IMG/VR virus record: IMGVR_UViG_2778261453_000008
Source of the DNA: a virus
Lineage: Duplodnaviria; Heunggongvirae; Uroviricota; Caudoviricetes
DNA length: 6,252 bases
Direction: 5' to 3' (one strand)
Each line of letters opens with the position of its first letter. Position 1 is the first letter of the stretch. This document shows positions 2,876-6,252 of the stretch, piece after piece. Below the pieces are notes generated by a model. It was not told where the DNA came from. It saw only the letters and a program-made list of their open reading frames with translations, and made no database searches. A program made the translations under genes and the position numbers.

Positions 2876-3301
2876 TTAGTGCATCACCACAGCATTCCCT
2901 GCAGGGCCGCCGCGATTCATCTGGTCATACAAAACAACCGCTGACGCAACAAAATCATCGACATCCTTCACCAGCCGATCCCTCCGTTCGACGATCTCAC
3001 GGTAATATTCAGAACTGTGGCTGCGCATACGGGCCACCAGCAAAGGCGGCATCGCCTTTTCGATTGCCGGTAACAGAGCCTGCATTTTTTCAACAGCATC
3101 AGGGGTGTCTTTATCCAGCCAACGGAAAATTTTCTGGGTATTACGGGCCAGGGCTTCCGGATGGCTGTCGTCATACAGTTCCGGGAACGTCATTCCCAGT
3201 TCGAAATACGCTTTGGTAATTTTCGCAGCCGGTATTTTTTCGCCGTCCGGATGCGCCCAGGCATTCATCGCCATGCGGATGTGTTCATGCTTGATTTTCA
3301 T
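2876..3301 (-). CDS. ydaT: YdaT-like protein (Rac-type, toxic when derepressed)
   Basis: 141-aa ORF starting MKIKHEHI..., which matches my recollection of YdaT in length and N-terminus. ATG at 3301..3299 has an AGGAG SD (plus 3309..3313 reverse-complemented). It overlaps the end of the upstream ydaS-like gene by 17 nt. Confidence 0.8.
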   Translation of the reverse strand: MKIKHEHIRMAMNAWAHPDGEKIPAAKITKAYFELGMTFPELYDDSHPEALARNTQKIFRWLDKDTPDAVEKMQALLPAIEKAMPPLLVARMRSHSSEYYREIVERRDRLVKDVDDFVASAVVLYDQMNRGGPAGNAVVMH

Positions 3302-3566
3302 GAATCAAGCTCCTAGTAAGTGGTTGTGTTAACGTTTTGGTATCTTCCAGCTCGGGCCAAATATTCATCCAATCAAAAGGCCTTAGTTGCTGACGTGTAA
3401 CTTCACCATTACTGGCTCGCTCAATAAGGACACATAACGATGCCCCTAACATTTGACCTTTACTCAATGCCTTTCTTAGATAACCGATGCTAGTACCACA
3501 CTCACATGCAAACATACGCTGTTCATCTGACGAAAGAGAATTGAGAAATATTCTTAATTCTTCCAT
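3285..3566 (-). CDS. ydaS: YdaS-like Cro/CI-type HTH protein (Cro analogue of Rac-type prophages)
   Basis: 93-aa ORF with a C-terminal segment (...LCVLIERASNGEVTRQQLRPFDW...) typical of the YdaS family. ATG at 3566..3564 has an AAGGAG SD 5 nt upstream. It is divergent from the repressor gene and first in the replication operon. Confidence 0.8.
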   Translation of the reverse strand: MEELRIFLNSLSSDEQRMFACECGTSIGYLRKALSKGQMLGASLCVLIERASNGEVTRQQLRPFDWMNIWPELEDTKTLTQPLTRSLIHENQA

Positions 3567-3666
3567 AGCTACTCCTTAGTAAACACAGCAAAGGATACCT
3601 ACAGGTAAACAAAAGTCAATACCCTTGGGTTGTTTACCTTGCGGTAATCGCATCTATTATTTACCT
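3567..3666. promoter_or_regulatory. Divergent promoter/operator region between the ydaS-like and repressor genes
   Basis: Two palindromic sites of form (A/T)TACC-N4-GGTAA: O1 at 3595..3608 (ATACCtacaGGTAA) and O2 at 3634..3647 (TTACCttgcGGTAA), plus a half-site TTACC at 3661..3665 abutting the repressor ATG. Candidate minus-strand promoter for ydaS: -35 TTGACT (plus 3614..3619 reverse-complemented), 16-nt spacer, -10 TATCCT (plus 3592..3597 reverse-complemented), overlapping O1. Confidence 0.55.
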
Positions 3667-4086
3667 ATGGACAAATATGAATTTAGACGACAACAACTCA
3701 TCAAAATTCGTGATGAGAAATGCGATGGTAAAGCGGTTAACGTGGCCAGAAAGATCGGTCGCGAGCCTTCTTATGTATCAAGAATGTTGTACCCAGAGGG
3801 GAAAAAAGGAAAAAAACGGATCGCTGATGATATGGTGGAGATTATAGAAGAGTCCTTTGGGTTACCCCGGGGATGGATGGATGGTATCGTTTCATCATCA
3901 ACGAACACAGCCTCCAATTATGAAACAAGGGTTCTAACGCCACGACAACGTATTTTTTTAGATCTCTTAGACGAACTGCCAGAAAGTGAAGCGGATAACT
4001 TATTAAAAACTCTTGAAGAGAAAAAACAGTATTACAATATGATCTACGAAGAAATCCGTAAAAAGAAAGCACAAAACGCATCATAA
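3667..4086 (+). CDS. Prophage immunity repressor, RacR/DicA-like (N-terminal HTH, C-terminal ELPESE-type domain)
   Basis: 139-aa ORF from ATG 3667 (MDKYEFRRQQLIKIRDEK...KAVNVARKIGREPSYVSRM...). The C-terminal ...LDELPESEADNLLKTLEE... resembles DicA/RacR-type repressors. It is divergent from the cro-like ydaS and AT-rich. The track ORF begins at an upstream TTG (3625) with no SD, so ATG 3667 is preferred. Confidence 0.8.
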   Translation: MDKYEFRRQQLIKIRDEKCDGKAVNVARKIGREPSYVSRMLYPEGKKGKKRIADDMVEIIEESFGLPRGWMDGIVSSSTNTASNYETRVLTPRQRIFLDLLDELPESEADNLLKTLEEKKQYYNMIYEEIRKKKAQNAS

Positions 4087-4120
4087 CTCACCAAACAACC
4101 AGTCACCAGTCAAGATACAT

Positions 4121-4168
4121 CAAAAAAAAATTACCCGTGGGTATTTACTTTTTGAATACCCACGGGTA
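4121..4168 (-). terminator. Rho-independent terminator hairpin, canonical on the minus strand (possibly bidirectional)
   Basis: Perfect 14-bp inverted repeat, tacccgtgggtatt (4132..4145) and aatacccacgggta (4155..4168), with a 9-nt loop. Plus-strand A9 at 4122..4130 gives a U9 tract right after the stem on the minus strand. On the plus strand the stem is followed only by tccttcctttc, so it is weaker for the repressor transcript. Confidence 0.6.
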
Positions 4169-4354
4169 TCCTTCCTTTCATACCAACCCACCCCGTCCCA
4201 CAGAACGCAGGGCAATACCTAGAGTTACCCGGCAGTGGTCAGGGGTTAAGTAGCCAGCCCGAGGCGTATGAACATGACGGCGGGAACACTTTATATAACA
4301 GCGCAGCAGGTTTTTAGTTCCGCTACCCCGGCGTTAAGGGGAAATGAGGTCAAC

Positions 4355-4507
4355 ATGGATACGCTCAATCTTGGCAACAACGAATCTCTGGTGTGCGGCG
4401 TGTTCCCAAACCAGGACGGTACGTTCACCGCAATGACGTATACCAAAAGCAAAACGCTTAAAACCGAATCTGGCGCGCGTCGCTGGTTAGCCAGAAACAC
4501 TGACTGA
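4355..4507 (+). CDS. Small conserved prophage protein, 50 aa (Rac YdaF/YdaG-like position)
   Basis: ATG 4355 with a GAGG SD (4346..4349) and 5-nt spacer; product MDTLNLGNNESLVCGVFPNQDGTFTAMTYTKSKTLKTESGARRWLARNTD. The track extends the frame up to ATG 4268, but that extension has rare codons (ATA, AGG, GGA) and contains a -10-like TATATA/TATAAC at 4293..4300, so I read it as promoter/5' UTR. Confidence 0.55.
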   Translation: MDTLNLGNNESLVCGVFPNQDGTFTAMTYTKSKTLKTESGARRWLARNTD

Positions 4508-4518
4508 TGAGGTTGACG

Positions 4519-4893
4519 ATGGAATTTAAAGATTTACCAATACCATTTCAGGAAATGGCAGCGAATATAGTTCGTTCTCAATTGGCTACTCTTGACCTGA
4601 GTACCGTAGAAAAAGAAACCATCGATAATATATCCGGTAACGTGCGCCGAGCCTTTATCGGGCTATACGAAGAGAAGCAGCTCTCTGATAACCAGGATTT
4701 ACATGAAAAATACTTTCTGGAATTAATGGACATCATTAATAAGGGATTTGGCCTGTTAATGAAAAAGAAAGGGATTCGAATAGCCCCCCTTGAAAATCAT
4801 TTTACAGCAAGCAGTATTAATTCCTGTGATTTAAAGCATCACACATCCGATAGGAAAGTTGAATCCACCTATAAAATATCAATTAATCATTAA
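4519..4893 (+). CDS. Hypothetical protein, AT-rich moron in the immunity region (124 aa; 128 aa if started at ATG 4507)
   Basis: ORF immediately after the small ORF. ATG 4507 overlaps its TGA by 1 nt, and ATG 4519 has a GAGG SD (4510..4513) with 5-nt spacer. GC is about 37% in a 119-nt sample I counted, versus about 58% in a sample of the DnaC-like gene. No transmembrane segment or recognisable motif; ends ...TSDRKVESTYKISINH. Confidence 0.6.
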   Translation: MEFKDLPIPFQEMAANIVRSQLATLDLSTVEKETIDNISGNVRRAFIGLYEEKQLSDNQDLHEKYFLELMDIINKGFGLLMKKKGIRIAPLENHFTASSINSCDLKHHTSDRKVESTYKISINH

Positions 4894-5343
4894 TTTATTC
4901 ACGGGTGAGATAGAGTGCGTGCGCCGGACACGGGTGAGCATCCGGCACTGACAGTTTACTGAAAGGATATTTCCCTGAAAAGTCAGACCATAACGCGAAA
5001 GCGTACGGCGAGGTAGCTGGTTCATAGATAGCCTGTCGTTAAATTTTGACCGTGCGCTTCCGGTTGTGGCAATCCGCGAAATGGCGCGGCGGTAAGTATG
5101 GCGGGGTTATTCCTTCCCCGTTGAGGACACCGGGTTGTCAGGTTGACCATACGCTTAAGTGACAACCACGCTGCAACGCCCTCTGTTATCAATTTTCTGG
5201 TGACGTTTGGCGGTATCAGTTCTACTCCGTGACTGCTCTGCCGCCCTTTTTAAAGTGAATTTTGTGATGCGGTGAATGCGGCTAAGCGCACGCGGAACAG
5301 TTAAAACCAAAAACAGTGTTATGGGTGGGTTCTCTGTATCCGG

Positions 5344-5388
5344 CGTTAATTGTTAACTGGTTAACGTCACCTGGAGGCACCAGGCACC
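5344..5388. promoter_or_regulatory. Repeat cluster upstream of kilR (putative regulatory site)
   Basis: Three tandem 8-bp units GTTAAYTG at 5344, 5352 and 5360 (gttaattg / gttaactg / gttaacgt), with GTTAACTGGTTAAC near-palindromic. Then a tandem 7-bp repeat aggcacc-aggcacc at 5375..5388, flanked by the inverted pair cctgg / ccagg. Function not established. Confidence 0.3.
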
Positions 5389-5425
5389 GCATCAACAAAG
5401 TTCATTTGTAAAAATGGAGATAATT

Positions 5426-5647
5426 ATGATTGCTCATCACTTCGGAACTGATGAGATTCCTCGTCAGTGCGTGACTCCCGGTGATTATGTTATTCATAAA
5501 GGAAGAACATATATTGCTTCGGTAAACAACATTAAAAAACAACGGCTCTATATTCGTGATTTTTCCACACAACACTGTATTAAGGAAACCATGATTAAAG
5601 TCTTCCTTGGTCGTGATGGTTTACCTGTAAAAGCAGAGTCATGGTGA
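5426..5647 (+). CDS. kilR: KilR-like killing protein (Rac-type cell-division inhibitor)
   Basis: 73-aa [35 protein letters not shown]...[18 protein letters not shown], matching my recollection of Rac KilR in length and sequence character. GGAG SD at 5416..5419 with 6-nt spacer to ATG 5426. The track ORF starts 4 codons upstream at ATG 5414, which has no SD. Confidence 0.8.
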
Positions 5648-5771
5648 GCAGTAATAAAATAACTGCCACAATACGACATTCAGCTTAATGAATACATCAG
5701 ATTTGATTCTTATATGCCAGCAATGGCAGGGATTTGTTCATCCTTAAATATATCATGAGGTTAAAACAAAA

Positions 5772-6252
5772 TGAGTAAAGTCTTTATTTGCGCCGCCATT
5801 CCGGACGAACAGGCAATAAAGGAAGAAGGTGCAATTGCTGTAGCCACTGCCATTGAAGCCGGTGACGAACGCCGCGCCCGTGCCAAATTTACCTGGCAAT
5901 TCCTGGAGCAATATCCGGCTGCTCAGGACTGCGCTTATAAATTTCTTGTCTGCGAGGATAAACCCGGCATGCCCCGCCCTGCTATCGACTCCTGGGATAC
6001 CGAATATATGCAGGAAAACCGCTGGGATGAGGAATCCGCTTCCTTTATTCCGGTCGAACCAGAATCCGATCCGATGAACGTCAATTTTAACAAGCTGTCC
6101 CTTGAAGTACAGAACGCGGTCCTGGTTAAGTTCGGTACATGTGAAAACATCACCGTTGATATGGTGATTAGCGCGCAGGAATTGTTGCAGGAAGACATGG
6201 CAACATTCGACGGACATATCGTTGAAGCGTTGATGAAAATGCCAGAAGTTAA
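5772..6252 (+). CDS. Hypothetical acidic protein, 3' end beyond the window (first 160 codons); first gene after kilR in the early-left operon
   Basis: ATG 5772 with GAGG at 5757..5760. The frame is open to the window end and gives a well-behaved acidic protein (MSKVFICAAIPDEQAIKEEGAIAVATAIEAGDERRARAKF...). The overlapping minus-strand track ORFs translate to Cys/His/Phe-rich junk. Identity not recognised with confidence. Confidence 0.65.

Follow-up and report, generated by a model that had tools for sequence, protein, structure and literature searches.

This report concerns two small open reading frames (ORFs) in a 6,252-nucleotide (nt) stretch of viral DNA from the Caudoviricetes (IMG/VR record IMGVR_UViG_2778261453_000008). 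The whole stretch, called the window here, is identical to the entire contig NOCO01000078.1 of the NCBI draft assembly GCA_002549675.1. It comes from a lambdoid prophage of the Rac/Qin kind, whose immunity and early regions it holds. The two ORFs encode proteins of 50 and 124 amino acids (aa) and lie one behind the other, downstream of a repressor-like gene. A first-pass annotation, made from the sequence, had described them as a candidate exclusion or defence module expressed in the lysogen.

The locus

The repressor-like gene (3667–4086, plus strand) encodes a 139-aa protein that matches the transcriptional regulator family phrog_5736 (E 4.7e-70). The C-terminus of this protein weakly resembles DicA, and the gene is divergent from a YdaS/cro-like gene on the minus strand (3285–3566). 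The 50-aa ORF (4355–4507, plus strand) is a DUF1391 gene of the YdfA/YdaF family. It is followed on the same strand by the 124-aa ORF (4519–4893).

DicF, kil and an exonuclease gene lie downstream of the small ORFs, also on the plus strand. The region from 4894 to 5194 is conserved and untranslated, and alignment with the Qin prophage of E. coli K-12 identifies it as the DicF precursor region; here it forms the 3' untranslated region (UTR) of the 124-aa gene. The DicF small RNA itself occupies 5195–5246 and is a full-length match to Rfam RF00039 (72.4 bits; the gathering score is 48). Aligned with K-12 Qin, the window shows almost no differences between 4900 and about 5400. The kil gene (5426–5647), which encodes an FtsZ inhibitor of the KilR family, is supported by NCBIfam PRK11354 (E 2.3e-41), by phrog_294 and by Pfam KilR on the identical contig. 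Finally, the N-terminal part of an early-left exonuclease gene of the YdfE type (5771–6252; phrog_2082, E 3.8e-114) runs off the contig.

The two small genes

The two ORFs are co-oriented and tightly spaced, as had been described. The 50-aa ORF ends with TGA at 4505–4507, and the 124-aa ORF begins with an ATG at 4519, after a gap of 11 nt that contains GAGG at 4509–4512. An alternative ATG at 4507 would overlap the stop codon as TGATG and give a protein of 128 aa. Because all homologues begin with MEFKDLP, 4519 is the conserved and real start. Longer versions of the 50-aa ORF, starting at 4268 or 4274, were rejected since, in relatives, indels and a TAA interrupt the frame upstream.

Both small ORFs are genuine genes under purifying selection. 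Pooled over six alleles, the ratio of nonsynonymous to synonymous polymorphism (pN/pS) of the 50-aa ORF is 0.22, compared with 1.83 and 1.78 in the other frames. For the 124-aa ORF it is 0.24, compared with 1.09 and 1.67. Within this ORF the N-terminal domain (N-domain) is constrained, with a ratio of 0.16 in codons 1–95 and a synonymous divergence of up to 0.42. The last 29 codons are relaxed (0.41).

These ratios bear on an explanation that needs no protein at all, in which the 124-aa ORF is the 5' part of the DicF precursor or recombination filler. DicF is known to be processed from the 3' UTR of whichever coding sequence precedes it (PMC9438474), the position can be empty in other prophages, and the 124-aa protein has no function or fold match. 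However, the low ratio is specific to the annotated frame, this frame is intact in hundreds of genomes, and the motifs of the N-domain are kept down to 45% identity. A purely non-coding role is therefore highly improbable.

The pair had been called AT-rich. This is true of the 124-aa ORF, which has a GC content of 36.5% (32% in its C-terminal half), compared with 48% for the window and 52% for the replication genes. It is not true of the 50-aa ORF, whose GC content is 51%.

The module had also been considered undescribed, and its 124-aa ORF free of recognisable motifs. The lack of a motif applies to the 124-aa protein only; the 50-aa protein is not novel and matches Pfam DUF1391 (PF07151; also phrog_751) with an E-value of 1.1e-28 and 99 bits against a cut-off of 27.3. 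The match is close to full length, with residues 2–48 placed on profile positions 1–47 of 48. DUF1391 genes occur in 4173 of 5426 complete E. coli genomes (77%), at 8732 places. The range of the family is narrow, comprising Escherichia, Salmonella, Shigella and Cronobacter, with an identity of at least 74%. An AlphaFold2 (AF2) model of the protein shows a beta-hairpin and a C-terminal helix, with a predicted local distance difference test (pLDDT) score of 80; no structural neighbour of this model was found.

Operators and a putative promoter

Four exact copies of the palindrome TACCN4GGTA occur in the window, at 3596, 3635, 4132 and 4157, where 0.04 would be expected. The first two, together with a site at 3620 that has one mismatch, form an operator cluster between the cro-like gene and the repressor gene (3596–3646). 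A PR-like promoter is found here on the minus strand (3619–3592), consisting of TTGACT, a spacer of 16 nt and TATCCT.

The other two copies form an OL-type operator pair (4132–4168), composed of TACCCGTGGGTA (4132–4143) and TACCCACGGGTA (4157–4168). The pair sits just past the stop codon of the repressor gene and ahead of both small ORFs. Its two operators overlie the -35 and -10 elements of a putative PL-type promoter on the plus strand (4144–4172), with TTTACT at 4144–4149, a 17-nt spacer and TATCCT at 4167–4172. Transcription from this promoter would be expected to start near 4179. The plus strand from 4128 to 4173 is an inverted copy, at about 78%, of the PR promoter and operator region at 3591–3635. 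A promoter scan of the plus strand from 3661 to 5500 found no other consensus-like promoter.

The arrangement is conserved. Among the unique sequences from loci that share this repressor, nearly all keep the outer TACC and GGTA, and changes are mostly confined to the four nucleotides between them. The PL hexamers are invariant, except in locus L088, where one operator and the -10 element differ and a single exact site is left. A possible third operator at 4216, with one mismatch, was rejected, as it is not conserved across these loci. K-12 Qin, taken as a control, has the same layout: copies of the DicA-type operator are found on either side of dicA, in the gap to dicC and in the gap to ydfA, in agreement with published work (PMC10448788).

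The two OL operators are also complementary to each other. They can form a hairpin of 16 base pairs (-26 kcal/mol, z = -6.8) that resembles a terminator on either strand; on the minus strand it has a T9 run. The leader between 4179 and 4360 holds no structured RNA: its fold is no better than that of shuffled sequences (z = +0.83), and it has no Rfam match.

Past the repressor gene, operators and a terminator-like hairpin come before the ORFs, which are therefore downstream of OL/PL and head the early-left region. The first-pass annotation had instead put them between the repressor gene and the early-left operon, in a position equivalent to that of rexAB in lambda. The rexAB genes of lambda lie upstream of OL/PL and are co-transcribed with cI. 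The small ORFs resemble rexAB in being downstream of the repressor gene and co-oriented with it. They differ in being separated from it by the operator pair and the hairpin (4132–4168), and the rexAB analogy does not stand. The expected co-expression with the repressor in the lysogen fares no better, given the same intervening elements and the fact that the homologues in Qin and Rac are repressed (PMC10448788; PMC6765115).

A variable slot behind DUF1391

For a survey of the region behind the DUF1391 gene, 80 IMG/VR loci with DUF1391 were retrieved and their homology to the window was compared. Homology breaks recurrently at 4500–4514, 4538, 4575 and 4677–4699, and it resumes at 4900, 4918, 4970–4978 and 5035–5075. 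What fills the slot between these points ranges from 31 nt to 1776 nt. The shortest filling represents an empty slot, which is seen in six of the 80 loci (L030, L033, L034, L038, L039 and L083). Here 31 unmatched nucleotides are followed by the DicF leader, joined at the equivalent of window position 4970.

Other loci have the slot filled differently. Locus L006, with the same type of repressor, carries ydfB-ydfC in place of the 124-aa gene, and the slot of K-12 likewise holds ydfB-ydfC. As for the 124-aa gene itself, the repressor genes that precede it carry at least five different annotations. The stretch from the DUF1391 gene to the DicF leader is prone to recombination, and the 124-aa gene is one of the cargo genes exchanged there. 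The idea of a cargo slot holds for this gene but not for its neighbour: the DUF1391 gene is the near-universal, conserved first gene of this operon type and is not cargo.

In some related loci, the slot also contains ORFs on the opposite strand. These are found in L007 (2954–3400, minus strand, 148 aa), L008 (2865–3086, minus strand, 73 aa), L002 (5728–6003, minus strand, 91 aa) and L011 (3886–4119, minus strand, 77 aa). The 148-aa protein of L007 has hydrophobic segments. None of the four has a Pfam match; three match PHROG families of unknown function (6315, 7249 and 10348), and the 91-aa protein matches none. Because their position on the opposite strand is like that of sieB in Rac, these ORFs are candidates for morons expressed in the lysogen.

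On the plus strand, the operator palindrome is preceded by an A9 run. Read from the minus strand, the stretch 4121–4181 therefore gives a strong predicted intrinsic terminator (-30.5 kcal/mol) with a U9 tail. Such a terminator could halt leftward transcripts of opposite-strand inserts before they enter the repressor gene in antisense.

The family of the 124-aa protein

The 124-aa protein matches phrog_6937 over its full length (residues 1–124 on profile positions 1–124, E 7.9e-76). This family has no assigned function, and homologues of the protein are annotated as hypothetical everywhere. Among complete E. coli genomes, 723 (13%) carry the whole gene, and 1357 carry its N-terminal part. An exhaustive HMMER search of 1.84 billion representative proteins returned just 37 matches, all sharing the N-domain or fragments.

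The N-domain comprises the first 52 aa (MEFKDLPxxIQEIAA...NVRDAFxGLY) and is common to proteins of 112–212 aa whose C-termini are unrelated. In the AF2 model of the 124-aa protein, helices at residues 8–24, 32–55 and 61–84 are followed by a disordered tail. The protein can be divided accordingly into a conserved N-terminal helical hairpin (aa 1–52), a class-specific third helix (61–84) and the disordered tail (90–124). It is predicted to be soluble and slightly acidic (pI 6.2). It has no transmembrane segment: its Kyte-Doolittle maximum for spans of 19 residues is 0.53 and falls far short of the transmembrane threshold.

The same hairpin is shared, over the N-terminal 50–60 aa and at 45–85% identity, by four PHROG families of unknown function (1363, 2151, 9419 and 33007). 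Like the 124-aa protein, their members are encoded in the early-left regions of lambdoid phages. One relative is the 147-aa protein YP_009187334 of Stx2 phage VT2phi_272, which is encoded deep in the early-left region. The C-terminal modules of these families are unrelated, whereas the C-terminal half of the window's protein belongs to phrog_6937 only.

Behind DUF1391, ORFs with the N-domain fall into at least six C-terminal classes. In all 43 loci where the two genes are adjacent, the N-domain ORF starts 11 nt past the DUF1391 stop. The point of exchange therefore lies within the gene, near codon 53.

The constant spacing, and the small size and shared orientation of the two ORFs, could suggest that their products work as an obligate pair, for instance of the toxin-antitoxin kind. 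Shared ancestry can account for the spacing, since the DNA is closely related. Moreover, the two genes also occur apart. DUF1391 is mostly found without this partner (8732 places in E. coli, against 1601), as in the empty-slot loci, in K-12 Qin and in Rac. Proteins with the N-domain also occur away from DUF1391, after ydfC in L008 and L011 and after a DUF2303 gene in an Stx phage. Neither ORF matches a toxin or antitoxin family in Pfam and NCBIfam searches. An obligate module is thus very unlikely.

The 124-aa protein matched no named family and no fold. In Pfam, it yielded a sub-threshold VLPT match only, and neither NCBIfam nor a profile search of PDB sequences (best E 0.38) found anything. 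It shows no similarity to YdfB, YdfC or YdaG. For both ORFs, PADLOC-DB v2 gave no defence family at E <= 0.1, and family searches in Pfam and PADLOC gave no similarity to Rex proteins. The paralogues with other C-terminal modules matched only families of unknown function in Pfam and PHROG scans.

Comparison with known systems

The closest parallels are the early-left region of the Rac prophage and the dicBF operon of Qin, a cryptic prophage of E. coli K-12. In Qin, the order of genes is dicA, dicBp-ydfA-ydfB-ydfC-dicF-dicB-ydfD-ydfE. In both Qin and the window, the repressor gene is followed by a co-oriented promoter that bears operators. In both, DUF1391 comes first and is followed by small cargo ORFs and by a near-invariant untranslated region of about 500 nt that contains DicF; a division inhibitor and an exonuclease gene come after DicF. 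The two also differ in several respects. Repressor and operator specificities are not the same, with TACCN4GGTA in the window and sites of the TGTTAG type for DicA. The slot holds the 124-aa gene in the window and the dissimilar ydfB and ydfC in Qin. The division inhibitor is kil in the window; Qin has dicB and ydfD.

The Qin promoter dicBp lies upstream of ydfA and is repressed by DicA, with a 22-fold induction upon deletion of dicA (PMC10448788). One polycistronic transcript covers ydfA to dicF, and no promoter lies inside this stretch (PMC10448788; PMC5069750). Most cells keep the operon off, but it switches on in about 1% of cells, as well as in stationary phase and upon certain stresses (PMC10448788; PMC5069750; PMC9438474).

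In Rac, the order is racR-ydaG-ydaF-[sieB, on the opposite strand]-kilS-kilR-...-recE. Here too, the DUF1391 gene (ydaF) is downstream of the repressor gene and co-oriented with it, a cargo slot comes right after, and a kil gene is found further on. In Rac, however, ydaG precedes ydaF, the slot holds sieB, which encodes a membrane protein, and the small RNA is KilS rather than DicF. When expression of racR falls, ydaF, ydaG and kilR rise 40- to 70-fold, with about 40-fold for ydaF and ydaG (PMC6765115).

A possible role in exclusion or defence

The first-pass annotation had also compared the locus with the sieB slot of Rac and had noted that the window has no SieB-like ORF. The latter is confirmed. 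A tblastn search of the window with K-12 SieB gave only matches with E >= 0.79, and neither ORF matches the Pfam SieB model (PF14163), which finds K-12 SieB at 1.5e-31. The comparison of slots is correct as to position, directly after the DUF1391 gene, but sieB is on the opposite strand. From that strand, sieB and similar inserts could be transcribed only if they had their own promoters; the 124-aa gene instead reads in the same direction as the repressed operon.

The argument for defence that was made from a rexAB-like position and from co-expression with the repressor fails, because neither was borne out. A superinfection-exclusion or defence gene could still be expressed in other ways: by leakiness, in stationary phase, in a subpopulation of cells, or by read-through from the repressor gene. 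Several observations are in keeping with such a role. The 124-aa gene is in a variable slot and AT-rich, and the same slot is occupied by sieB in Rac. The polymorphic C-termini of its family and its relaxed tail would fit an arms race. The Qin operon is active in a fraction of cells and in stationary phase, as described above, and transient induction of this operon protects against lambda via DicB, which in Qin belongs to the same operon as DUF1391 and the slot genes (PMC6832061).

Against this, the operator pair and the hairpin both precede the 124-aa gene, which lacks its own promoter. On the same strand and only 11 nt ahead of it stands DUF1391, with which a repressed operon begins. Its product is soluble, unlike SieB, and has neither a PADLOC match nor any similarity to SieB or Rex. 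Relatives of the gene in Stx phages are found far into the early-left region, past gam, bet and exo. On balance, a role in exclusion or defence seems rather unlikely.

A probable repressor-controlled early-left operon

The reading that we favour, and consider probable, is that the two ORFs are the promoter-proximal genes of a repressor-controlled early-left operon, a variant of dicBF, in which the 124-aa protein acts as a small early effector. From the placement of the operators we infer repression by the product of the adjacent repressor gene, as is known for Qin and Rac.

The proposed unit would run from the repressor gene through the OL pair and the PL-like promoter to DUF1391, the 124-aa gene, a processed 3' UTR, DicF with its terminator, kil and the exonuclease gene. 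In a stable lysogen, the repressor would bind both TACCN4GGTA operators over the -35 and -10 elements and keep the unit off. Transcripts arriving from the repressor gene should be stopped by the hairpin of the operator palindrome. Upon derepression, whether by induction, a spontaneous switch or stress, one transcript would be made that encodes both the DUF1391 protein and the 124-aa protein. The 3' part of this transcript would be processed into DicF, and read-through would reach kil. The 124-aa protein may then bind and modulate a protein of the host, or of a competing phage, through its variable C-terminal part. This guess follows the pattern of the operon type, in which all characterised proteins are small and bind host proteins: the targets are MinC and ManYZ for DicB, FtsZ for Kil and the IspG step for YdfD (PMC6832061; PMC8835842).

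Several points weigh against this reading. The PL-like promoter agrees with no more than 8 of the 12 consensus positions, and the promoter scan did not report it. The tail that follows the OL hairpin on the plus strand (TCCTTCCTTT) makes a weak U-tract, so transcripts from the repressor gene may partly read through. The Qin operon is not fully silent, as DicF and ydfA RNA build up in stationary phase (PMC10448788), which makes low-level expression in lysogen populations plausible. As for the effector, the AF2 model of the 124-aa protein is moderately confident, with a pLDDT of 62 overall (about 80 in the N-domain), and no match in Pfam, NCBIfam, PADLOC, PDB sequences or folds points to a target.

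A more speculative extension, and one that we regard as doubtful, concerns the family as a whole. The 124-aa protein may belong to an unrecognised, polymorphic family of early-left proteins whose N-terminal hairpin docks onto a common partner, possibly the DUF1391 protein, and whose C-terminal modules, swapped by recombination within the gene, are arms-race effectors that counter defences or exclude competing phages. These would be deployed at the start of induction or in a switched-on subpopulation.

Neighbouring features

Leftward of the YdaS/cro-like gene, the minus strand carries a YdaT gene (2876–3301), an O-like gene (1891–2868) and a DnaC-like gene (1138–1884). In larger contigs, the same gene arrangement adjoins ompW, with int and xis. 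The window probably exists as a short standalone contig because prophage regions of the DUF1391/DicF type, of which there are up to seven per E. coli genome, break assemblies.

Some further observations concern the region around kil. A sub-threshold Rfam match to STnc100 lies at 5258–5399 on the plus strand (37.4 bits, gathering score 47, E 3e-6). This stretch, between the DicF terminator and kil, is nearly invariant relative to K-12 Qin. Homology to Qin stops just ahead of the division-inhibitor gene (5397–5425), and the window has kil at the place of dicB in Qin. In L006 and L008, an 84-nt remnant of dicB lies directly upstream of kil, which points to a replacement of dicB by kil through recombination. 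L092, L093 and L095 are contigs that encode an identical 124-aa protein. Between DicF and kilR they carry a gene for a 283-aa, antirepressor-like protein with Phage_ASH and pRha domains (10918–11769, plus strand, in L092).

Implications

The dicBF-type operon and the DUF1391 family were already known; the locus adds an operon of this type that carries an uncharacterised cargo gene. Two widespread hypothetical genes, DUF1391 and the 124-aa gene, are placed in a repressor-controlled operon that produces DicF, rather than in an immunity unit expressed in the lysogen. The suitable condition for testing both would accordingly be a derepressed or induced prophage, not a resting lysogen. In these prophages, the 124-aa coding sequence would also serve as the parental messenger RNA for DicF. 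If the members of the 124-aa family are indeed effectors, they would add to the small prophage proteins that manipulate the host.

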